Source of the DNA: an uncultured virus (IMG/VR IMGVR_UViG_3300014059_000009)
Taxonomy: Duplodnaviria; Heunggongvirae; Uroviricota; Caudoviricetes
Reading direction: 5' to 3' (one strand)
Virus record (IMG/VR): IMGVR_UViG_3300014059_000009
Length of the DNA: 64,000 bases
Shown: in pieces, positions 1-30,600 of the stretch
How the letters are laid out: each line of letters opens with the position of its first letter
Numbering within the stretch: the stretch's first letter is position 1
Program-made: the position numbers and the translations under genes
Notes under the pieces: model-generated
What the model saw: the letters and a program-made list of their open reading frames with translations, nothing else
Told to the model about the DNA's origin: nothing
The model's database searches: none

Positions 1-77
1 GGTTGCGTCTTGGCCAAGTTTTGCGGCGGTTGTGGCGGCAGTGGGCGCATCAGTGATCCCCCAGGGGAATGACGTTG
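1..77 (+). repeat. 77-nt exact direct repeat, copy 1
   Basis: Identical to 42284-42360; first mismatch at 78 (C) vs 42361 (T); imperfect similarity continues to about 197/42483. Confidence 0.95.
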
Positions 78-172
78 CGCTGCCCGACGGTTCGCCCGTT
101 CTGAACAATGAGGATGATACGGGCCTGACTGTTTCGCAAGGTGGGGAAAACCACACCGGGGGCGAAGCATGA
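2..172 (+). CDS. 3' part of Cro-like HTH regulator (truncated by window start)
   Basis: Open frame VASWPSFAAVV...GGEA* nearly identical to C-terminus of 42114..42458. Confidence 0.85.
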   Translation, partial: VASWPSFAAVVAAVGASVIPQGNDVALPDGSPVLNNEDDTGLTVSQGGENHTGGEA

Positions 173-1398
173 ACGTTCACACCGAAGTCTGCCCGCCTGA
201 ACCCGTCACCTTTCACCCGCTGGCCGATATCTTCCCTTGGCTGGAAGGCGCGGCCAATGATGCCTTGCGCGAGGACATTCGGCAGAACGGCGTCCGGGAA
301 CCTATCGTGTTCCTCGACGGGGCCATTCTGGACGGGCGCAACCGCTACCAGTGTGCGCGGGACTTGGGCATTGCCTATCCCCGGCGCGAGTTCGGCAGCG
401 ATCCGCTGGACGGCGCAGACCCGCTGGCCTTTGTCATTTCTCTGAACCTCACCCGGCGGCACCTGTCGGAAAGCCAGCGGGCGAGTGTTGCGGCGAAGCT
501 GGCGAACCTGAACCACGGCGGCGACCGGAAGTCAGATCAAGGTGCAAATTTGCCCCTTGAACCGGAGGCCCCTGCTGTCACCGTCGCAGCCGCCGCCGAA
601 ATGCTGAACGTGTCAGAGCGCAGCGTCAAGTCTGCCCGGAAGGTGCAGGACAAGGGCGCGCCGGAACTGGTGGCCGCACTGGACGCGGGCAAGGTGGCCG
701 TCTCGACCGCCGCCGAAATTGCCGAACTGCCAAAGGCGGAACAGGCAGAAGTCGTGGCGCGGGGCGAAAAGGAAATTCTCGCCAAGGCGAAGGAGATCAA
801 GGCAGTCAAGTCCGCGGCCCGCCGCGTCGAACGCCTCGACAATTTGGCCGAGATTGCCAAGGGTAACGCCGCGCTGGACGTTTCCGTCCGGTATCCGGTG
901 ATCTACGCTGATCCGCCTTGGCGCTATGAAAACCCGCCAATCGGGGCGTCCAGCCGCTCCATCGAAAACCACTACCCGACAATGACGCTGGCCGAGATAT
1001 GCGCCATGCCGGTTTCAGAGTTGGCGACGGATGACGCCATTCTCTACCTCTGGGCCACAGCACCGAAGCTGGAAGAATGCTTCGAGGTGATCAAGGCCTG
1101 GGGCTTCGAATACCGCACCAACATGGTGTGGGACAAAGAGAAGATCGGCATGGGCTATCACGCCCGGAATCAGCACGAATTGCTGCTGATCTGCAAGCGC
1201 GGGGAAATCCCGCCGCCTGCCGCCGGGACTCAGCCCTCAAGCGTCTATCGTGAGGCCCGGACGGAACATTCCGCGAAGCCTGCCTTCTTCGCAGAAATGA
1301 TCGAAGGGGCCTATCCTCAACTGCCGAAGATCGAGCTGTTCTGCCGGTCCCCCCGCGCGGGCTGGGCTGTTTTCGGCAACCAGTCGGAGGCGGCATGA
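169..1398 (+). CDS. ParB-like/HTH domain fused to MT-A70 family N6-adenine methyltransferase
   Basis: N-terminal ILDGRNR ParB-like motif; C-terminal YADPPW, HSAKP, IELFCR motifs of MT-A70. Confidence 0.85.
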   Translation: MNVHTEVCPPEPVTFHPLADIFPWLEGAANDALREDIRQNGVREPIVFLDGAILDGRNRYQCARDLGIAYPRREFGSDPLDGADPLAFVISLNLTRRHLSESQRASVAAKLANLNHGGDRKSDQGANLPLEPEAPAVTVAAAAEMLNVSERSVKSARKVQDKGAPELVAALDAGKVAVSTAAEIAELPKAEQAEVVARGEKEILAKAKEIKAVKSAARRVERLDNLAEIAKGNAALDVSVRYPVIYADPPWRYENPPIGASSRSIENHYPTMTLAEICAMPVSELATDDAILYLWATAPKLEECFEVIKAWGFEYRTNMVWDKEKIGMGYHARNQHELLLICKRGEIPPPAAGTQPSSVYREARTEHSAKPAFFAEMIEGAYPQLPKIELFCRSPRAGWAVFGNQSEAA

Positions 1399-1931
1399 CG
1401 ATCCACGCCTTTGAACAGAGCCTCGCTCTATCCCATGAGCAGGAAGATGCGCCGTGGTGGGGCGAAGTCTATGCCAAGGCCTTTCCGGGCTACCTGAGCG
1501 CCGTTTCCATTCGGCAGGATGGCTGGGCGCAGCGCGGCGGCATTGATCGGGTCATCACCCTCAAGAGCGGCAAGACGCTGACCATCGATGAAAAGGTTCG
1601 GGCCAAGTCCTACGGTGACATAGCCCTTGAGCAGTGGTCCGATCTTGATCGGCAAAAGCCGGGCTGGATGCAGAAGGACTTGGCCTGCGACTTCATAGCC
1701 TACGCCTTCATCCCGGATTCGCGCTGCTACCTGTTGCCGTTTCCCACTCTTCGTCGGGCGTGGCTGGAAAACGGGAAGCAATGGCTGGCTTGGGCCAAGG
1801 CTGGCGAGGGTGGCTACCGGATCATCGACGCCAAGAACCCGAGCTATATCACCCGATCCGTCGCGGTTCCGATCCCCGATCTTCTGTCAGCAGTGTCGCA
1901 GGCGATGGTGCTGGAATGGGGGTTCGCATGA
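1395..1931 (+). CDS. Putative PD-(D/E)XK nuclease
   Basis: GIDRVI...TIDEKVR catalytic-like spacing; ATGA-coupled to the MTase. Confidence 0.6.
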   Translation: MTIHAFEQSLALSHEQEDAPWWGEVYAKAFPGYLSAVSIRQDGWAQRGGIDRVITLKSGKTLTIDEKVRAKSYGDIALEQWSDLDRQKPGWMQKDLACDFIAYAFIPDSRCYLLPFPTLRRAWLENGKQWLAWAKAGEGGYRIIDAKNPSYITRSVAVPIPDLLSAVSQAMVLEWGFA

Positions 1932-2104
1932 CCGCCCTTGAAGCCCTTGCCAACGCCACCATCGGCTTTGCCGTCTCCTGGGCCGCGACCTTCTTCGTGC
2001 TTGGCTACAGCCCCGCCGCAAGCCTTGGCGTCACGGCCATGTTCTTCGGCCTTTCCTTCACCCGCAGCTACGTCCTGCGCCGCATTTTCGCGAGGCTTGC
2101 ATGA
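1928..2104 (+). CDS. Small two-TM membrane protein (58 aa)
   Basis: MTALEALANATIGFAVSW..., hydrophobic; near-identical copy at 44239..44415. Confidence 0.8.
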   Translation: MTALEALANATIGFAVSWAATFFVLGYSPAASLGVTAMFFGLSFTRSYVLRRIFARLA

Positions 2105-2274
2105 CCCCTAACCTGTTCCTCACCGCCATCGTCGCCCTGTGCGTTCTTGCGCTGCTCGTCTTCGCGCTGATCGGGGCGCTGCACATGGTGCATGTATTCC
2201 GCAGCCACCGCCGCCCGTGGGATGACCAGCCCCCGCCCGCGTCATGGCTCGCAAAGCAGGAGCGCGGGGAATGA
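2101..2274 (+). CDS. Small membrane protein (57 aa)
   Basis: Hand-translated MTPNLFLTAIVALCVLALLVFALIGAL...; ATGA overlaps; homolog at 44412..44585. Confidence 0.7.
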   Translation: MTPNLFLTAIVALCVLALLVFALIGALHMVHVFRSHRRPWDDQPPPASWLAKQERGE

Positions 2275-2393
2275 CCATCGCCCGTGTCTTCTGGCGCTGG
2301 ACGCCCTTCTTTGGCCGCTGCGACAACCCCGACGCGCCGTTCCGCCATGTCCTGCATATTGGCTGCTGGCTGATCTTCTGGGGGCGTCCATGA
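2271..2393 (+). CDS. Hypothetical protein (40 aa)
   Basis: MTIARVFWRWTPFFGRCD...; conserved in frame at 44827..44949. Confidence 0.65.
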   Translation: MTIARVFWRWTPFFGRCDNPDAPFRHVLHIGCWLIFWGRP

Positions 2394-2650
2394 CCCCCAC
2401 CCCCAACACGCCGCCGCGCTCCTCCTCTACCGGCGCGGCCACCTCCCCACCAGCGATCCTCCCCGCTGGTGGGGCTTTCTCCAATGACGACTTGATCGCA
2501 AAGGCCGGAATCGTCGTCGGCCTATGGGACTTGATGCTGTTTTCCAGCGGCAACCCCGCTGCCCGACAGAAGCGCGCCGATGTGATGCATGTGGCGGTTT
2601 CGAACCTTCAGGCCGCGCTCCTCAAGCAGTCGGAAAGGGTGGCCAGGTAA
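2390..2650 (+). CDS. Hypothetical protein
   Basis: ATGA-coupled; C-terminus ALLKQSERVAR shared with 44946..45284. Confidence 0.6.
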   Translation: MTPTPNTPPRSSSTGAATSPPAILPAGGAFSNDDLIAKAGIVVGLWDLMLFSSGNPAARQKRADVMHVAVSNLQAALLKQSERVAR

Positions 2651-3291
2651 TGCCCGCATATCGTTCGTCAGCCGAGGCAGAGATCAGAGACGCTGCCGTG
2701 GCGCGGCTTCGTGAGACCATGCCGGGGTGCCGGATCATTCACGAGATCAACTGCGCCAGCTTTGGCCCGAACCGGATCGACGTTCTGGCGGTTGGCAAGG
2801 ATCGCATTGCCGCAGTCGAAGTCAAGAGCGAGCGGGACAAGCTGGACCGCCTGCCGGATCAGATCATGTCCATGCGAGGCGTGGCGCACCACACCATCGC
2901 GGCGCTGCATGAGAAGTTTCTGACGCCATGGCGGACCAAATATGGCGACCTTCCCGCGTTCCATGCCCCGAATGAAGCCAATCATGCCGTGGTCTGGGCC
3001 TATCCCGTGAGGCCGCGCGCCGGGGTGCTTGGCGAGTGGCCGTTGTCCGACCGCTTCGACAAGCCGAAGCTCCTGCCGCCGCCGGGATTCATCGATCTGC
3101 TTTGGGCCGCAGAGCTTCGGGATATCGTGCGTCGGAACGGCCTGCATCGCGGGGCATCCAAACTGGACATGCCGCAGTTGGTGGACCTAATCCGGTGGGG
3201 CCTGCCGGGGAAAACCGTTCTGGCCGAAACCTGCGCCGCGCTTCGTCGCCGGGCCTGCGTCGAGGCCGATCCGGCAATGGAGGCAGCATGA
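2650..3291 (+). CDS. PD-(D/E)XK nuclease-like protein (sce7726/MmcB-like)
   Basis: E..IR, IIHE, RIDVLAV, AVEVKSERDKLDRLPDQ motifs. Confidence 0.7.
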   Translation: MPAYRSSAEAEIRDAAVARLRETMPGCRIIHEINCASFGPNRIDVLAVGKDRIAAVEVKSERDKLDRLPDQIMSMRGVAHHTIAALHEKFLTPWRTKYGDLPAFHAPNEANHAVVWAYPVRPRAGVLGEWPLSDRFDKPKLLPPPGFIDLLWAAELRDIVRRNGLHRGASKLDMPQLVDLIRWGLPGKTVLAETCAALRRRACVEADPAMEAA

Positions 3292-3440
3292 TCCGCCGCC
3301 TTCTCCGCTTCTTCCGCAAGCCCGCAGACCCGCGTGACGCGGTGTTCGCCCGCAGAGCAATGCGCGTCTGCAACCGGAAGCGCGAAGTCGCGGCGCGGTT
3401 TGAACGCGTCCACGCGATCCTGGCAAGGGGGCCGAAGTGA
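3288..3440 (+). CDS. Hypothetical basic protein (50 aa)
   Basis: MIRRLLRFFRKPADPRDAVF...; homolog at 45706..45858. Confidence 0.7.
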   Translation: MIRRLLRFFRKPADPRDAVFARRAMRVCNRKREVAARFERVHAILARGPK

Positions 3441-3700
3441 CAGACATGGACGCTATTCTGGACGACGCTTTTGCCGCCGTCGGTATCCGGCCCGGACAGC
3501 GCAAGGAAGCCGCCCGCTTCAGCAAGCCCCTTGAGATACATGGGACGGCATGGCGCGAGCAAGTCAAGCACCGCCTGATTGACGGCTACGGCGTCGAGGA
3601 TATCGCGATCTGGCTGGGCTGCCACGTCAGCCATGTGCAGGACGAAGTGGCAAGGCTCCGGCGGCGTGGCGACCTCGCAAGGTGGTGGGGGCGCGAATGA
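3437..3700 (+). CDS. Small HTH-like protein
   Basis: GYGVEDIAIWLGCHVSHVQ HTH-like segment. Confidence 0.55.
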   Translation: MTDMDAILDDAFAAVGIRPGQRKEAARFSKPLEIHGTAWREQVKHRLIDGYGVEDIAIWLGCHVSHVQDEVARLRRRGDLARWWGRE

Positions 3701-4152
3701 AGGGAAAGCCCCGCAACACAGGCCGCACCGTTTCCGACGCCGAGTTTCGGCGCATGTGGGAAGACATGTCCATTTCGCAGAACGAGATCGGGCGCAGGCT
3801 TGGCATATCCAGCGAGGCCGTGCGGTTCCGAGCCGCGTCCAGGAAGCTGCCACCGCGCCCCAGGGCGAGGCCCTTCGCCCGCACCGTAGATTATCAGCGC
3901 GTCGTGCGACTCTACAAGGCGGGCCTGTCACAGTCGGCTGTTGCGGCAGTTGTCGGCATCCCAATCACCAGCATCAAGGCCGCGCTCGTTGAGGCTGGCG
4001 TTGAGATTCGCGGCAGACACCCAGGTGCGTCACTGTCGGTTAAGGACGCCATGGCGCGCGTCATGGCGATGGAAGCGCGGGAAACCGAGGCTGCGCTGCG
4101 CCTGTCCGACATGGTGGACTACCACATGGGTAACAAGCGGAGGGCAGCGTGA
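3697..4152 (+). CDS. Tandem HTH DNA-binding protein
   Basis: Two HTH-like segments (SQNEIGRRLGIS; GLSQSAVAAVVGIP). Confidence 0.65.
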   Translation: MKGKPRNTGRTVSDAEFRRMWEDMSISQNEIGRRLGISSEAVRFRAASRKLPPRPRARPFARTVDYQRVVRLYKAGLSQSAVAAVVGIPITSIKAALVEAGVEIRGRHPGASLSVKDAMARVMAMEARETEAALRLSDMVDYHMGNKRRAA

Positions 4153-4514
4153 AGCACCTGCGCAAGCCCACCATCCCCATAGCCCCTTGGGAGATACCCG
4201 ACGCAAGCGGGGACGAGTGGGACTACACGCCAGAGGAACGCCAAATGGAGCAGGAATGGCACCGGGCAGAAATCGAAAGGGCGGCGGCTAAGCCGTCCCC
4301 AGAGAGTGCGCCAAACCCTGTGGAAAGCCGGGTTTTGCACAGGAAATCCCAGAACCAATCCACACCATCATCTGCTTTAATTGGACGTGTGTTCATGGGC
4401 CGACTGAACGTTTCGGACCTGGATTACATGGCCAAGGCGATCCTGCAAATGGCCGACGAGAACCACGAATTGCGCGAGCGGGTGCGGAAGCTGGAAGAAA
4501 GGCTGGGGAATTGA
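4149..4514 (+). CDS. Conserved protein upstream of initiator
   Basis: Highly similar to 46507..46869; C-terminal coiled coil. Confidence 0.75.
   Translation: MKHLRKPTIPIAPWEIPDASGDEWDYTPEERQMEQEWHRAEIERAAAKPSPESAPNPVESRVLHRKSQNQSTPSSALIGRVFMGRLNVSDLDYMAKAILQMADENHELRERVRKLEERLGN
4319..4364. promoter_or_regulatory. Cluster of DnaA-box-like 9-mers
   Basis: TTTTGCACA (4333-4341) matches TTWTNCACA; inverted TGTGGAAAG (4319-4327); CAATCCACA (4356-4364); conserved in unit B. Confidence 0.45.
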
Positions 4515-5377
4515 GCCACGCAGCAACTAATTGGGCGATACGTCAGAAGGGGCTTAAGCCCGCGACGAAGATCGTCCTTTGGCACCTTTGCGACCGGCAC
4601 AACCCGGACACGGGCTGCTTCCCGAAGCAAGAGACGCTGGCAGCCGACTGCGAAATGTCTCGCTCCACCCTCAACCTGCACCTCGCCAAGCTGGAAGAAC
4701 TTGGGCTGATCCGGCGCGATGCCGGGCGGGAACATGGGTCAATGAAGCACCGCCCGACGCGGTATTGGCTGGCATTTGAAGACGGTGAAACCGTGTCCGA
4801 AAAGCGGACAAAAACCGTGTCCGAAAATAGGACATTCACCCCAAAAACCGTGTCCGAAAAACACGCAAAACCGTGTCCGAATTTCGACGAAAACCGTGTC
4901 CTAAATTCGGACACTAACTCTGTAAGGGAACCAGTAAGGGAACCAGTAAGTAAGGGTCGCGACGTTGCGCAGGCGCTTGAGGCATGGGCATTACCCGCAT
5001 CCGTCGCCAGCTTTCTGGCCTATCGCCGCAAGAGCAAGGGCGGGGCAATGACCCTGACCGGGGCAAAGCGGCTGGCAACCCACCTCAAAGCCATTTTCGA
5101 CGCCGGGGGTGACACCGACGACGCGCTGGCCATGGCCGAAGAGCGCGGGTGGCGAACGGTGGAACCGGATTGGTATTGGCGGGAAAGGAACAAATCGAAT
5201 GGCAACGGAAGTCGCGGCGCAAACCGAATACCCCAAGGCGGCAAACGGCCTGACCCTGCCCTTGAGCAGATCGCTCGCCTCGCCGGACTTGGCCAAGCAC
5301 CGGGCGATGGTCGCGGTGGAACTGGAGGTTCTGGCGAAGAAGCTGGACCGCTTTGGATGGGAGCGCGACCGCAATAG
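4511..5377 (+). CDS. Replication initiator (lambda O-like, N-terminal winged HTH)
   Basis: KIVLWHLCD...CFPKQETLAADCEMSRSTL...LEELGLI HTH_36-type N-terminus; internal iterons. Confidence 0.85.
   Translation: MSHAATNWAIRQKGLKPATKIVLWHLCDRHNPDTGCFPKQETLAADCEMSRSTLNLHLAKLEELGLIRRDAGREHGSMKHRPTRYWLAFEDGETVSEKRTKTVSENRTFTPKTVSEKHAKPCPNFDENRVLNSDTNSVREPVREPVSKGRDVAQALEAWALPASVASFLAYRRKSKGGAMTLTGAKRLATHLKAIFDAGGDTDDALAMAEERGWRTVEPDWYWRERNKSNGNGSRGANRIPQGGKRPDPALEQIARLAGLGQAPGDGRGGTGGSGEEAGPLWMGARPQ
4788..4956 (+). repeat. Replication origin: five iterons plus tandem 12-mers
   Basis: AAACCGTGTCC(G/T)AA starting near 4788, 4812, 4845, 4868, 4891; then GTAAGGGAACCA x2 from 4922. Confidence 0.85.
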
Positions 5378-5663
5378 CCCGGCACATGACAGGCTGATCA
5401 TCGACTGGATGGATGCGTTGCAGGACTACCCGCTGGACGAAATTCGCGCCGCCTGCCGCGAGGCGGTCATGGCCCGGCCCAACGCCATGCCAAACGAGGG
5501 CCACATCGTATCGAAGATCATGGAGGCGCGGGCCGCCTTCGTTCGCCTGAACCCACCGACCACTGCGCCAGAGCCGCGCCAAGAGCGCATGTCAGCCGAG
5601 CGGGCGGCGGAAATCATGGCTGAGGCTGGCTTTCGGCCCAAGGCGTTCGGGGGCACGGAATGA
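5199..5663 (+). CDS. Helicase loader-like protein (lambda P position)
   Basis: Follows initiator; WMDALQDY...EIRAAC...MPNEGHI pattern; SD-like AAGGA before ATG 5199 (alternative start 5307). Confidence 0.55.
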   Translation: MATEVAAQTEYPKAANGLTLPLSRSLASPDLAKHRAMVAVELEVLAKKLDRFGWERDRNSPAHDRLIIDWMDALQDYPLDEIRAACREAVMARPNAMPNEGHIVSKIMEARAAFVRLNPPTTAPEPRQERMSAERAAEIMAEAGFRPKAFGGTE

Positions 5664-6532
5664 CCGAGGCCCAATACCGCATCAACCTCATGGCCCGCTT
5701 CCCCCACCTCACCAGCATGGAAGCCATGGCCCGCCACGAAAGCGCCGTCGCCAAGCGCAGCTGGGAGCGCTGCACCGCCAGCGTCACTCACCACACCGGG
5801 CAGATCGCCACTCGCCACCGCAGGCAGGCATGGGCCGCCGTCATCGTCAGCCTCTCGCCCATAACCAGGGAGGGCGCCCGCGAGGCATGGGGCGTCACCA
5901 ACAGCGCGGCGGACTCCAGGCTCGATAGCCTCGAACTCGGCGGGTTTGCGCAGCGCATATCCGCCCGCCCCATCCGCTGGGCCATCAACACCGAGGGGAG
6001 GCAGGGATTGACGCTCATGATCAGGCACTTCGACTGGCGCAGGGCACTCCTGCACGGCGTCACCCTCGCCGCCGAAAACCACCGCGACCACGACACCCCA
6101 GAGGCGTGGACCGCCATGTGGGAATTGCTCCGTGAGGCAGCCGCCGTCTCCCGGTCGTGGGACGCCCCGCCGCGATCAGGTTTCCCGGATCGTGGGTCAT
6201 GGCCGGAGACGCCCGACGAGATCACTACGTGGCAGCGGCAGATGGCATATCTGCAGGGCACCCTCGATGAGGCCCCCCAGGAAGAGCCCGAGCCTCCCGT
6301 GCCGTCCGCCGCCGAGGTGACGCGCGCCGAGGCTGTCCTGAGCCTCTGGCATGACAGCGCGCTGATCGTCGGCGGACAACCCCACCGGCACAAGCGCGCC
6401 GTATGGCGCCTGGCCGAAGGCGCGTTTCTCGGCTCCGTCACCCGCATGACCGGTCTGCACCGATCCGAAGTGCTGGCCCTGCGGAAAAGAGCCGCAACCG
6501 ACATGCTGCGCGCCGCTGGGGTCGAAAAATAA
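5660..6532 (+). CDS. Putative late-gene regulator (wHTH + DUF6362-like)
   Basis: Last early-right gene (Q position); WELLREAA...SWPE...PSAAEVTRAEAVL resembles DUF6362 proteins. Confidence 0.5.
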   Translation: MTEAQYRINLMARFPHLTSMEAMARHESAVAKRSWERCTASVTHHTGQIATRHRRQAWAAVIVSLSPITREGAREAWGVTNSAADSRLDSLELGGFAQRISARPIRWAINTEGRQGLTLMIRHFDWRRALLHGVTLAAENHRDHDTPEAWTAMWELLREAAAVSRSWDAPPRSGFPDRGSWPETPDEITTWQRQMAYLQGTLDEAPQEEPEPPVPSAAEVTRAEAVLSLWHDSALIVGGQPHRHKRAVWRLAEGAFLGSVTRMTGLHRSEVLALRKRAATDMLRAAGVEK

Positions 6533-6556
6533 TTCTGCGCTGGCCGAATTTTCCTC

Positions 6557-6585
6557 TTGCAATAGTCCGACTGTCGGACTACATT
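6557..6585 (+). promoter_or_regulatory. Sigma70 promoter with perfect palindromic operator
   Basis: TTGCAA-17 nt-TACATT; TAGTCCGAC-T-GTCGGACTA (6563-6581) fills the spacer. Confidence 0.8.
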
Positions 6586-6628
6586 GAGTGTATCGAAGCT
6601 ACCACCGCACACGCGAGAGGAACCTGAA

Positions 6629-6946
6629 ATGACCAACGAGCAGATGAAAATGATCGTCCGCAAAGCAATCGAGCTTGCGTCGGCACGGGAGGTTTCGGGC
6701 AACAAAACCGATCGTTTCGCGCGCACGCTTGATTTCTGGCCGACCGCCACTTTCGCGGAGCGCGCCTCGACGATGGCGAACCTGCTGGCCCTCGATGCGG
6801 GGGCTGACGTGTCCGACAGGGCGACCTGCGCCGTCAACGCCGAGCGCGCTGCGCTGCGGGAGCGTCAGGTCTGGGGTGTCGACAACGAGTTCTACGACGG
6901 GTCCGCATTCGCTGCCCGTCTCGCCGCGGCACTTGGCGATCACTGA
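6629..6946 (+). CDS. Hypothetical protein (candidate anti-defence)
   Basis: SD GAGG; first gene of autonomous cassette. Confidence 0.7.
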   Translation: MTNEQMKMIVRKAIELASAREVSGNKTDRFARTLDFWPTATFAERASTMANLLALDAGADVSDRATCAVNAERAALRERQVWGVDNEFYDGSAFAARLAAALGDH

Positions 6947-6964
6947 CACCGAGAGGGCCGGGCC

Positions 6965-7417
6965 ATGACCATTCACGAGTTTGCGAACGAGGCAGAGGCG
7001 GCAGAGGCGGGGTATCTGGTCCGCCTCCCCCGCCCCGAGGAATACCGGGGCTGGCTGATCCTGACCGATTGCAAGGGCGGCACGATCCGGGTTTTCGGGC
7101 GGGAACGCGCGGGGACATGGGCCGTGCCCGAGACCCCGCAGCCGCTGATCCGCGTCGGCTTGGCGGGCACGATCCGCATGGCCAGGACGATGCCCAGTGG
7201 TCGCTACATGAAATTTCGTTGGGTTTGGCTGCCGCACGGCGGACAGCCGCGAGAGGACCTGATCAGCATTGCGAACCGGACCAGCCGGGTCGGGCATCCG
7301 ATGCCGCTCGGCAGATATGCTCACCGTTCCGAATGGGAACGCGCACGGGCAGAACTGTGCAGGCTGATCGACGTGCGGGTTGACGGACGCGCCAACCTCG
7401 ACCTGATCGAGGACTGA
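6965..7417 (+). CDS. Hypothetical protein (candidate anti-defence)
   Basis: SD-like GAGAGGG; 150 aa; no recognised family. Confidence 0.7.
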   Translation: MTIHEFANEAEAAEAGYLVRLPRPEEYRGWLILTDCKGGTIRVFGRERAGTWAVPETPQPLIRVGLAGTIRMARTMPSGRYMKFRWVWLPHGGQPREDLISIANRTSRVGHPMPLGRYAHRSEWERARAELCRLIDVRVDGRANLDLIED

Positions 7418-7493
7418 TGGATGCCCCGCAACGGCGAGGAACAGATTTGAACCTTCCTGGACTACGGTTCATCCCCGCCCCAGCGAGGAACGG
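7416..7493 (-). CRISPR. Type I-E-like mini-array: repeat, 20-nt spacer, 3'-degenerate repeat
   Basis: Minus strand CCGTTCCTCGCTGGGGCGGGGATGAACCG (21/29 to the E. coli I-E repeat, 4 differences in the loop) + TAGTCCAGGAAGGTTCAAAT + CTGTTCCTCGCCGTTGCGGGG. Confidence 0.75.
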
Positions 7494-7497
7494 GCCG

Positions 7498-7526
7498 ACA
7501 GAACGCCAGAATCCAATCGGAGTCAA
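7498..7526 (-). promoter_or_regulatory. Putative antisense promoter for the mini-array
   Basis: Minus strand TTGACT-17 nt-TTCTGT; predicted start near 7491, at the 5' end of the repeat; the -10 is weak. Confidence 0.4.
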
Positions 7527-7527
7527 C

Positions 7528-7782
7528 ATGGACGAGAGCCGGAACCCCTACAACCGCTGGTATCGCCGGATCAGGACCAGCCACGCCATGAGCCAGGCCG
7601 AGGTCGTGGAATGCTGCCGCATCGGGGGGCTGGCGGTCAGCCGGTCCATGGTTGATGCATGGGGACGGCGCGCCGGGACCGAAAGCCGCCGAGCGGCGGC
7701 GATGACCGAGGAACAGTTCGAATCTTTCACCGCCGGGCTGGTCGACTGGATCAGGGAGGCCCGCGATGACCCCGCTGGATGA
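7528..7782 (+). CDS. DUF1456/YehS-like small HTH-type protein
   Basis: SD GGAG; YRRIR...MSQAEVV...GLAVSRSMVDAW...MTEEQFESFTAGL resembles the DUF1456 pattern. Confidence 0.55.
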   Translation: MDESRNPYNRWYRRIRTSHAMSQAEVVECCRIGGLAVSRSMVDAWGRRAGTESRRAAAMTEEQFESFTAGLVDWIREARDDPAG

Positions 7783-7972
7783 TACCCGCCCATTTGCCGA
7801 TGTGCTGCGCGATTTCCTCGGGCGGCACCATCTGCGCCAGACACCCGAGACTGCGGCGCTGTTCGGGGCAGGCCGGTCCACGCTGACCGACTGGCTGGCT
7901 GGCCGCGAGGTGCCGCGCGGCGAGCGGTCCCACCGGGCGCTGATGCTGCTGATCGACGAGGGGCGCGCCTGA
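7766..7972 (+). CDS. XRE-type HTH regulator (Aca-like position)
   Basis: ETAALFGAGRSTLTDWLAG HTH; last gene of cassette. Confidence 0.75.
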   Translation: MTPLDDTRPFADVLRDFLGRHHLRQTPETAALFGAGRSTLTDWLAGREVPRGERSHRALMLLIDEGRA

Positions 7973-7983
7973 CTGATAGGCCG

Positions 7984-8012
7984 TTGACACCGGCTCGCAA
8001 ACCTGCCATTTT
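7984..8012 (+). promoter_or_regulatory. Putative late promoter (pR'-like)
   Basis: TTGACA-17 nt-CATTTT upstream of the late operon; analogous TTGACA at 49652. Confidence 0.6.
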
Positions 8013-8028
8013 CACGCTCGGATAAGTA

Positions 8029-8065
8029 CGCCCGCCAGGATCACCCTGCGCGGGCGTTTCGCATT
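8029..8065 (+). terminator. Leader hairpin (tR'-like) downstream of late promoter
   Basis: CGCCCGC-CAGG-ATCAC-CCTG-C-GCGGGCG then TTTCGCATT; 28 nt identical at 49701-49728. Confidence 0.65.
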
Positions 8066-8090
8066 CCCCCACCATCACAGGCGGCGCACC

Positions 8091-8402
8091 ATGGGCACAT
8101 GTTCCTTCTCAGTGGGCAGGTATGGCCGCATTCGCGGCGCAGGCGCTTCAACCGTCATCTCGTCCAGCGTCCGCACATCGGGAAGCCACGCCACCACCAC
8201 CAGCGCGTCCACCCTCTCTGACGGCAGCAACGTCACGCTCGCATCGGGTGAGGTGCTGCAAGTCCACGCCGACGAGGCCATGCGTATCCGCTTCGGGGGC
8301 GTCGCGGCCACAACCAACACCGGCCACTACATCCCGGCAGGCGGACAGGTGGAGTTCGAGTGCAACGATCCGGGGACAATCTCAATCATCGACGTGGCGT
8401 GA
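8091..8402 (+). CDS. Hypothetical protein, first late gene
   Basis: 103 aa ORF after leader hairpin; beta-rich composition. Confidence 0.65.
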   Translation: MGTCSFSVGRYGRIRGAGASTVISSSVRTSGSHATTTSASTLSDGSNVTLASGEVLQVHADEAMRIRFGGVAATTNTGHYIPAGGQVEFECNDPGTISIIDVA

Positions 8403-8403
8403 C

Positions 8404-9651
8404 GTGACTGAATTTCCCGCCTATAAAACGGTTTCAGTCGCAAAGCTGATTCCATACGCCCGCAACAGCCGGACGCATAGCGATGCGCAGGTTGCCAAGA
8501 TCGCCGCCAGCATTCGTGAGTTCGGGTTTCTCAACCCGGTGATTGTGGACGGCGAAAGCGGCATCATTGCGGGGCATGGTCGCGTGATGGCGGCGCAGAA
8601 GCTGGGGCTGGCATCGCTGCCGGTGATCGAGGCGGCGCACCTTACCGAGGCGCAGAAGCGGGCTTACGTAATTGCAGACAACCGGCTGGCGCTTGACGCT
8701 GGCTGGGATAACGAAATGCTCAAGGTCGAGTTGTCTGACCTGCAAGCGGATGGCTTCAACCTGGAACTGACCGGCTTTAGCCTAGATGAGATTGCGGCGT
8801 TTCTGGTTGACCCCACCGAGGGGCTGACCGATCCCGACGCGGTTCCTGACGTTCCAGAGGTGCCGGTGTCTGTGCTTGGCGATATCTGGGTTCTGGGCAA
8901 GCACAGGATTGCCTGCGGATCATCGACGGACGCGCATACGGTCGAGGCTGTGCTGGCGGGCGTGAAGCCGCACCTGATGGTGACGGACCCGCCCTATGGC
9001 GTCGAGTACGATCCAGCCTGGCGCAATCAAGTCGGCGCGGCAAAGACGAAGCGCGTGGGCAAGGTGCTGAACGACCACCGCGCGGACTGGCGGGAAGCCT
9101 GGGCGCTCTTCCCCGGCGATGTGGCGTATGTCTGGCATGGCGCCCTGCATGCGACCACTGTCGCCGAGAGCTTGATCGCCTGCGGCTTCGCGATCCGCAG
9201 CCAGATCATCTGGGCCAAGGAACGGCTGGGGCTCTCCCGCGGGGACTACCACTGGCAGCACGAGCCCTGCTGGTATGCCGTCCGGGAGAAGGCGACCGGC
9301 CACTGGTCGGGGGACCGCAAGCAGACGACGCTCTGGAACATCCCGAGCCGGGACCAGGATGCGGCTACCGTGCACGGCACGCAGAAGCCCGTCGAATGCA
9401 TGCGCCGCCCGATGCTGAACAACTCGAGCCCCGGCCAGGCAGTCTACGAGCCCTTCTCCGGATCAGGTTCGTCGATCATCGCCGCCGAGACCTGCGGGCG
9501 GCACTGCCATGCCGTGGAACTGGACGCGGCCTATGTCGACGTCGCCGTCGAGCGCTGGCAGGCCTTCACCGGCCAGACCGCAACGCTGGAAGGCGATGGC
9601 CGCACATTTGCCGAACTGACCCCGGAGCGGATCAATGCGCGCGCAGCATGA
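8404..9651 (+). CDS. ParB-like domain + N4/N6 DNA methyltransferase
   Basis: YARNSRTH, IIAGHGR, IADNRL (ParBc); TDPPY, HGTQKP, EPFSGSGS; GTG start 8404. Confidence 0.9.
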   Translation: MTEFPAYKTVSVAKLIPYARNSRTHSDAQVAKIAASIREFGFLNPVIVDGESGIIAGHGRVMAAQKLGLASLPVIEAAHLTEAQKRAYVIADNRLALDAGWDNEMLKVELSDLQADGFNLELTGFSLDEIAAFLVDPTEGLTDPDAVPDVPEVPVSVLGDIWVLGKHRIACGSSTDAHTVEAVLAGVKPHLMVTDPPYGVEYDPAWRNQVGAAKTKRVGKVLNDHRADWREAWALFPGDVAYVWHGALHATTVAESLIACGFAIRSQIIWAKERLGLSRGDYHWQHEPCWYAVREKATGHWSGDRKQTTLWNIPSRDQDAATVHGTQKPVECMRRPMLNNSSPGQAVYEPFSGSGSSIIAAETCGRHCHAVELDAAYVDVAVERWQAFTGQTATLEGDGRTFAELTPERINARAA

Positions 9652-30231: not shown

Positions 30232-30600
30232 ATGAGGACCATCGAATACCACAAGATCAATCCGACAAACGACACGCTGGACGTAGTGGTGAAAGACGCG
30301 CCCAGCCACGGTGGCGCAAGCCATGTGTATGAAGTCCACCACGCAAGCACCGCTGGCATCGCTCCGCTTCTGGCTGTCAACTTCCAGAATGGCCCCATTG
30401 GGGAGCATGGCGTCAACGGCGTCACGCAGGAAATCCTTCTGGCCATCGTGATCGACCGGCTGCGGTCCTTTCAGGCTGGGCCATTCTCTTCGCGGGAAAA
30501 CGCTCTGGCTCTGACGAAGATCGAGGAGGCGCTGCACTGGCTTCAGCAAAGGACGCTGGACCGGATGCGGCGCGGCGTCGAGGGCAAAACCGCCGCCTGA
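30232..30600 (+). CDS. tad1: Tad1-family anti-defence signal sponge
   Basis: GGASHVY, NFQNGP, NGV..E.LLAIVIDRLRSFQAGPFSSRENALALTKIEEALHW...R..DR..RGV.G match the Tad1 signature; SD GGAGG. Confidence 0.85.
   Translation: MRTIEYHKINPTNDTLDVVVKDAPSHGGASHVYEVHHASTAGIAPLLAVNFQNGPIGEHGVNGVTQEILLAIVIDRLRSFQAGPFSSRENALALTKIEEALHWLQQRTLDRMRRGVEGKTAA

Follow-up and report, generated by a model that had tools for sequence, protein, structure and literature searches.

The described systems closest to the element analysed here are the Cracrs, viral RNAs that copy the CreR or CreA RNAs of their hosts (Liu et al., bioRxiv 10.1101/2024.10.29.618823). As presented in that preprint, the type I-E Cracr arrays carry guides of 24 and 21 nucleotides (nt), repress the casA promoter and compete for Cas proteins, while the I-F Cracrs have a median guide of 19 nt, one of them being a 49-nt RNA. 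Their complexes contain fewer backbone subunits, Cracrs that silence CreT toxins are also described, and the published candidates are defined by at least nine matches, proximal to the protospacer adjacent motif (PAM), to a known host CreR or CreA spacer. The I-E CreR that is copied is an RNA by which Cascade represses its own promoter (bioRxiv 10.1101/2023.03.10.532045). A relative of the Cracrs, the Racr, is a solitary repeat unit: type I-E Racrs are functional in Pseudomonas, and the search pipeline used for them passes over full repeats if a partial one lies within 100 bp (Camara-Wilpert et al., Nature 2023, PMC10651486). Here we analyse a short element on the minus strand of a 64,000-nt stretch of DNA from an uncultured virus (IMG/VR record IMGVR_UViG_3300014059_000009; the window, below, is this whole stretch), which we tentatively read as a phage-encoded, Cracr-type gene for a CRISPR RNA (crRNA)-like RNA, namely a one-guide mimic of the host I-E CreR. 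Virus-borne mini-CRISPR arrays with full-length spacers against rival viruses are also said to exist, reportedly from work by Faure et al. and Medvedeva et al. in 2019.

The core of the element spans window positions 7424-7493 on the minus strand, 70 nt in which a full repeat, a 20-nt spacer and a hairpin-only repeat adjoin one another. Its parts, and the motif pair ahead of it, are as follows:

7493..7465, minus strand: psiR1, a full 29-nt type I-E repeat mimic, CCGTTCCTCGCTGGGGCGGGGATGAACCG (sequence reading)
7464..7445, minus strand: psiS, a 20-nt spacer-like guide, TAGTCCAGGAAGGTTCAAAT (sequence reading)
7444..7424, minus strand: psiR2, a 21-nt hairpin-only repeat, CTGTTCCTCGCCGTTGCGGGG, with the stem and U-G wobble of psiR1 and the loop CGUU
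7416..7423, minus strand: degenerate former handle after psiR2, CATCCATC, overlapping the stop codon of the upstream gene
TTGACT at 7526..7521 and TTCTGT at 7503..7498, minus strand: putative promoter TTGACT-N17-TTCTGT, ending 4 nt before psiR1

The psiR1 unit has what defines an I-E repeat, that is a length of 29 nt, a GC stem of 6 bp, a loop of 4 nt and, at the 3' end, the handle ATGAACCG; its hairpin pairs CCUCGC with GCGGGG, including a U-G wobble, around the loop UGGG, and its 8-nt handle, AUGAACCG in the RNA, is intact. Both stems are perfect, while the two loops differ from each other at all four positions. Where psiR2 should have its handle stands CATCCATC, identical to the array-repeat handle at none of eight positions. 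The wobble results from a C-to-T stem change common to both units, which reads as a U-G pair on the minus strand but as C-A on the plus strand. The handle bases UGAACC are moreover complementary to GGUUCA in the spacer, and this pairing is present in the predicted folds, including that of the processed 49-nt RNA. On each of these points (the parts with their coordinates, lengths and minus-strand order, the orientation-specific wobble, the second unit that kept its hairpin and lost its handle, and the handle-spacer pairing) the sequence agrees with a preliminary description of the locus. The two units recur at a 49-bp period around a 20-nt spacer, as against the 61-bp period and 32-nt spacers that are the norm in arrays, and no cas genes were found among the 48 open reading frames (ORFs) of the window, just as the preliminary description had it. 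Taken together, these features mark the element as a mimic and not a CRISPR array.

Sequence comparisons, of the kind that had been proposed for alphaproteobacterial hosts, place psiR1 in the repeat family of the I-E arrays of Rhodobacterales and Paracoccaceae. It is identical at 26 of 29 positions to the repeat found in 67 copies at the complete, annotated I-E locus of the Haematobacter massiliensis plasmid pOT1-4, the sole difference outside the loop being the C-to-T stem change. To 16 consensus repeats of Rhodobacterales arrays it is identical at 22-24 of 29 positions, and to the array repeat of one genome (G265) at 24 of 25 with the loop excluded. The psiR2 unit reaches 17/21 against host array repeats and belongs with the I-E repeat family in its stem part alone. 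These comparisons with database-derived repeats replace an earlier, provisional figure of 21/29 for the Escherichia coli I-E repeat.

The match is hard to attribute to chance. A 27-nt repeat pattern with the loop left free has one match in the window, with no mismatches, and is matched at three or fewer mismatches in none of 100 shuffles. A pattern for the hairpin alone is less telling: allowing two mismatches, it has two matches in the window against a shuffle mean of 0.59, and at least two matches occur in 11 of 100 shuffles. As an empirical background we used 401 genomes of the order Rhodobacterales (about 1.6 Gb), in which the look-alikes with at most one mismatch are mostly arrays, with some single repeats behind an array leader. 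Solitary matches with the T variant in two of these genomes (G401 and G224) were considered as relatives of the element and rejected as coding coincidences within one conserved gene. As these two are the only solitary coincidences in 401 genomes, chance matches are rare yet real; nevertheless, chance is a very poor explanation of the element because its second unit stands exactly in register. A scan of IMG/VR for an I-E handle followed by another repeat within 14-28 nt returned six loci: this phage, one coding coincidence and four other mini-arrays with 20-26-nt spacers. An Rfam scan of 6500-8500 (E up to 10) did not find the CRISPR-DR family and gave two chance matches only. An IMG/VR contig with a GC content of 0.66 (L047:300-560) carries a three-unit I-E-like mini-array with mutually similar spacers of about 21 and 20 nt, which looks like a two-guide Cracr array.

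The hosts of the phage are likely to be Paracoccus-like bacteria of the order Rhodobacterales: the described phage closest to it is the Paracoccus phage vB_PmaP_KLEP18-1, whose portal protein is 62% identical, and a 66% homolog of the gene adjoining the element bears the name of H. massiliensis. In this order, which contains Ruegeria, I-E-type repeats occur in 22 of the 401 genomes, at a 61-bp period in 14; of the 15 repeat-bearing genomes tested, 12 have Cse1, and so do 19 of 155 from a single large genus of the order. We also compared the window with 600 spacers (587 unique) from 21 arrays, 18 of them from genomes of the order and three from viral contigs. One spacer, which belongs to the I-E array of 229 repeats in the genome G150, matches window 5386-5417 on the minus strand, within the gene at 5109-5663, at 27 of 32 positions, while 587 reversed and 587 shuffled spacers reach at most 24/32. 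By our calculation three of its five mismatches fall at third codon positions of that gene, and CAA stands at the PAM position. This stretch is probably the protospacer of a related phage, to go by the distribution of the mismatches, and, since the match exceeds the controls, I-E systems of the order appear to have met relatives of the phage. The spacers of H. massiliensis, by contrast, match the window at up to 23/32, a value that reversed controls also reach.

To see what the element might imitate, we inspected the region upstream of cse1 in 28 I-E loci of the order, comprising 27 chromosomal loci and that of pOT1-4. Mini-arrays of the CreR type occupy the gap between cas3 and cse1 in 12 of the 28 (11 chromosomal loci and H. 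massiliensis pOT1-4):

CreR-bearing loci: L034, L035, L036, L041, L044, L057, L058, L060, L074, L077, L078 and L099:6440-6570

Their layout is as follows: a psiR1 with the handle kept and the hairpin decayed, then psiS, then a psiR2 with the hairpin kept and a degenerate handle. This degenerate handle ends in a PAM, which is AAG in most cases and ATG in L078, and directly past it, beside a TTGACA box, lies a sequence that agrees in part with psiS. Guide positions 6 and 12, which are not read by the type I-E complex, are where CreR guide and target differ in several loci. The guide is exactly 20 nt long in four of the 12 (L034, L057, L060 and L078) and about 32 nt in the others, and the geometry of those four, namely handle, 20 nt, 2 nt and GTTCC, is exactly that of the phage element. 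The T stem variant of both phage units likewise recurs in the psiR2 of two host CreRs, those of G150 and G479, whereas all 17 array consensus repeats seen have the C form at this position. Indeed, the psiR2 of the G150 CreR shares 18 of 19 hairpin bases with the phage psiR2, including the T variant, the one difference being a loop base; relatives of this CreR region were found in none of the 34 other genomes of its genus.

The layout of the 12 host loci is the published architecture of the I-E CreR, and the phage element resembles it in keeping the psiR1 handle and the psiR2 hairpin (bioRxiv 10.1101/2023.03.10.532045), in addition to the 20-nt geometry and the T variant. It differs in three respects: the CreR lies between cas3 and cse1 whereas the element lies in a phage, the phage psiR2 has no adjoining PAM and target, and the psiR1 hairpin is intact in the phage but degenerate in the hosts. 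The element also resembles the Cracrs as the preprint describes them. Both are cas-less and phage-borne, place repeat-like units around a short guide, have a psiR2 that is degenerate past its hairpin, and are expected to yield an RNA with an 8-nt handle and a shortened effector complex. Position outside any cas locus, in a virus, with repeat-like units around a shortened spacer, is as in Cracrs. The published ones are, however, defined by a match of at least nine bases to a host guide, of which none was found for the phage element; it further differs in having a single guide, in being antisense to its flanking genes and in the U-G wobble of both hairpins. The main text of the Cracr preprint names no Rhodobacterales or Alphaproteobacteria (10.1101/2024.10.29.618823), and no member of the Rhodobacterales is named in the published main texts consulted here.

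The element lies between two plus-strand genes:

6965..7417, plus strand: upstream flanking gene, 150 aa, without a family and with two unnamed homologs
7528..7782, plus strand: downstream flanking gene, 84 aa, weakly DUF1456-like (Pfam DUF1456, E 0.0012)

The downstream gene could be read as part of a longer ORF, 7417-7782, in which the DUF1456 match spans residues 50-109. However, four of five homologs of this long ORF begin at the residue equal to its M38, the ATG at 7528, which is preceded at 6 nt by GGAG; the fifth comes from the same locus, in a copy of 98% identity. These starts argue that the true start is 7528 and that the 5' end of the long ORF is an artefact, so that 7418-7527 is non-coding. 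The 70-nt element fills most of this 110-bp gap. Thus, the sequence, the ORF set and the starts of the homologs uphold the earlier view of a phage-borne, cas-less imitation of an I-E repeat-spacer-repeat in an intergenic gap.

From this anatomy we infer transcription, Cas6e processing, Cascade loading and a target along the following lines. A short minus-strand transcript would begin just upstream of psiR1; host Cas6e would bind both hairpins and cut at their 3' bases, giving a 49-nt RNA made of the 8-nt handle, the 20-nt guide and the 21-nt hairpin. This RNA would assemble host Cas5e, Cas7, Cse2, Cse1 and Cas6e into a shortened Cascade, with about two Cas7 fewer than normal, that would be too short for efficient licensing of Cas3. 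The shortened Cascade would bind a partly matching site at the host cse1 (casA) promoter in the manner of the host CreR, thereby lowering cas expression, and the RNA would also compete with real crRNAs for Cas proteins. The preliminary description had left the choice between a decoy and a non-cleaving guide directed at the cas promoter. We prefer the guide because the geometry equals that of the host CreRs upstream of cse1 and matches that of Cracrs with 19-24-nt spacers; this part of the earlier proposal fits best, while the target it calls for was not found. A short non-cleaving guide and a smaller complex are, through the Cracr preprint, already in print (10.1101/2024.10.29.618823). On this footing the reading as a one-guide, Cracr-type mimic of the host CreR is one that we hold at a little short of even confidence, and, counting it together with the pure decoy discussed below, the element is probably some kind of anti-CRISPR crRNA mimic. 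A more elaborate version, which we consider quite unlikely, takes the U-G wobble as a functional mark of regulatory crRNA-like RNAs that may, for instance, alter Cas6e binding or release. With this mark and a 20-nt guide that pairs with the handle, a lytic podophage would build a mini-Cascade with four Cas7 that silences the cse1 promoter of Paracoccaceae and escapes the host's discarding of aberrant guides.

A number of results weigh against the proposed CreR mimic, foremost those on its target. The psiS sequence is unique in the window at up to three mismatches, also with respect to the second phage that the window contains (see below), and none of the 12 host psiS sequences resembles it. 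Neither the 28 I-E loci, which come from the likely host order and stand in for the true host, nor the genome searches held a host CreR guide or target sharing at least nine PAM-proximal bases. The best psiS match in the I-E loci, at 15 of 20 positions and off-register, lies beside the CreR target and the cse1 -35 box of G086. In those regions, chosen after the data had been seen, 15/20 is reached by 14 of 5000 shuffles and by 29 of 5000 random 20-mers of the window. In this match, positions 2 and 5 of the seed do not agree and the PAM position reads GGA; that it lies beside a cse1 promoter is only suggestive. Searched in IMG/VR with every sixth base free, psiS matched, apart from the contig of the phage itself, a single unrelated AT-rich contig, in which the PAM position reads CAA; in the 401 genomes, at up to two mismatches, it returned one match, inside a coding-looking stretch. 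A pattern of handle plus guide, allowed three mismatches in the 155 genomes, proved too loose, with counts equal to those of a reversed-pattern control, and three inspected matches with two mismatches were without the repeat hairpin. Plasmid and phage collections gave chance-level matches only. Hence, the proposed search of the spacer against host cas leaders and co-occurring phages yielded no target in the window, IMG/VR, the 401 and 155 genomes, the 28 I-E loci, or the plasmids and phages.

Further difficulties concern folding, transcription and conservation. The free RNA is predicted to form a single long hairpin of -42.7 kcal/mol, as against -18.0 for the two Cas6e hairpins together, so that co-transcriptional binding of Cas6e would be needed; the predicted fold of the minus strand is no better than that of shuffles (z -1.63), and the same holds for the plus strand. 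As for the antisense promoter of its own that had been ascribed to the element, the boxes and their spacing are present, but a sigma-70 consensus scan called neither a promoter nor a terminator for it. The putative -35 box overlaps the spacer between the Shine-Dalgarno sequence and the ATG of the downstream gene, and may exist solely through the neighbour's ribosome-binding region. The -10 box is poor. By our reading of the locus sequences, host cse1 promoters likewise combine a good TTGACA box with poor -10 boxes, from which we infer that the negative scan is not decisive. All copies of the element, in the IMG/VR record of the phage (G001), two further loci (L005 and L033) and a contig of run X9, are identical, flanks included, and selection on it can therefore not be read. 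In contigs of two runs (X6 and X11), a variant of the phage has another, shorter sequence in place of 7373-7605, a stretch that takes in the upstream gene's end, the element and the first part of the downstream gene; accordingly, the element sits in an exchangeable module. Finally, neither a tyrosine nor a serine integrase was found in G001 (estimated to be 90% complete), and a slow transcriptional silencing of cas genes would help the phage less if it is strictly lytic.

Some of these results fit an alternative that we regard as fairly unlikely, a pure decoy of the Racr kind. In it, the hairpins and the handle would soak up Cas6e, Cas5e and Cas7 into useless sub-complexes and the spacer would be a mere linker, whose pairing with the handle may help to make the complex aberrant. 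Such a decoy accords with the exact retention of both hairpins and the handle beside fully divergent loops, with the empty guide searches and with the handle-spacer pairing predicted in the 49-nt RNA. The element also resembles a Racr in being a repeat mimic in a phage intergenic region, and perhaps in lying, as Racrs do, directly downstream of a promoter (the putative TTGACT-N17-TTCTGT, which the scan did not call), and I-E Racrs have been validated in Pseudomonas (PMC10651486). The same paper, however, defines Racrs as solitary and its pipeline passes over a full repeat accompanied by a partial one; with psiR2 only 20 nt from psiR1, the element is not a Racr in the strict sense, and its contig identifier was not found in the text supplements of that paper. 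Moreover, a decoy needs neither the exact 20-nt geometry of four host CreRs nor the suggestive match at a cse1 promoter.

We rate as similarly improbable that the element is a non-functional relic, a piece of a host array or CreR gained by recombination and carried along as a variable module. Its restriction to near-identical copies of one phage lineage, the variant allele that replaces it, and the want of a called promoter and a target are what such a relic would lead one to expect. Yet the parts that are kept are exactly those a crRNA-like RNA needs, with two perfect stems, a handle intact on the first unit alone and a spacer shortened by a multiple of 6. By our reading the flanks have no homology to host cas3 or to the cse1 promoter, the element fills an otherwise tight intergenic gap, and its psiR1 hairpin is intact, unlike that of the host CreRs.

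A guide that serves another purpose, aiming Cascade at a rival phage or plasmid or at another host gene such as a CreT-like toxin or a defence gene, is very unlikely. Cracrs that silence CreT are a precedent for it (10.1101/2024.10.29.618823). Against it stand the lack of a match in the second phage of the window and the single AT-rich chance match in IMG/VR, and 20 nt is short for interference. The mini-arrays that viruses are said to carry against their rivals share with the element the repeat-spacer-repeat in a cas-less virus; theirs are reportedly full-length and rival-matching, whereas the phage spacer has 20 instead of 32 nt and no viral match was found for it. That the direct-repeat hairpins have nothing to do with CRISPR, being a protein-binding site, an attachment site into CRISPR arrays or chance, is extremely improbable: although the hairpin pattern alone is not rare in shuffles at two mismatches and two one-mismatch look-alikes lie in a conserved coding gene of other genomes, no shuffle reached the exact 27-nt match, the second unit is in register, psiR1 is 26/29 identical to a real repeat, the plus-strand fold is unremarkable, and the attachment-site idea was dropped because no integrase was found in G001.

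The phage itself is a podophage, the window encoding small and large terminase subunits, a P22-type portal and a major capsid protein, as well as an ERF recombinase. Window 1 to about 42283 corresponds to G001, a 42.4-kb IMG/VR record, in permuted order. The remainder, 42284-64000, is a second, related phage genome with 88-94% identity in patches to window 1-8073; it has portal-size and capsid-size ORFs of its own and is without the CRISPR-like element, and the window may represent two genomes in tandem or a record that was joined. Two ParB-fused DNA methyltransferases, of the MT-A70 type and the N6/N4 type (169-1398 and 8122-9651, both on the plus strand), bracket the early region in which the element lies; from their domains they are likely to have anti-restriction functions. 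A 122-aa protein encoded at 30232-30600 on the plus strand has a weak match to the Acb2/Tad1 hairpin domain (PF24729, E 5e-6, 27 bits, exactly at the cut-off), and is by this match a possible sponge for cyclic-nucleotide defence signals.

The phage was recovered from wastewater, activated-sludge and freshwater metagenomes (20 rows from 12 studies), the usable sequencing runs being contigs. Its relatives are few: blastn of 6900-8100 against the phage collection gave no match, and in IMG/VR relatives of the flanking proteins were confined to the same phage and one 40% fragment. In the genome collection a DUF1456-like profile returned nothing and a portal profile two loci, neither with the element. 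A search of the metagenome collection gave one locus, in which the element is identical. In low-depth contigs of the wastewater run X11, the sequence returns from 7492 to 7464 by way of 32 or 29 other letters; these contigs derive from true I-E arrays of that community, whose repeat is similar.

RNA-based mimicry of CRISPR guides by phages has already been described between 2023 and 2026, and the element leaves that principle unchanged. A by-product of the analysis may prove of greater use than the element: at least 12 Rhodobacterales I-E loci carry CreR-type self-regulators with the PAM inside the degenerate psiR2 handle, and the four host CreRs with 20-nt guides provide guide-target pairs of natural origin in which to study the conversion of Cascade into a repressor by short guides. 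The element, with 70 nt, one guide and two hairpins, offers a compact test case. If the proposed mimicry of the host CreR is true, it would extend Cracr and Racr mimicry to the Rhodobacterales podophages of wastewater and activated sludge.

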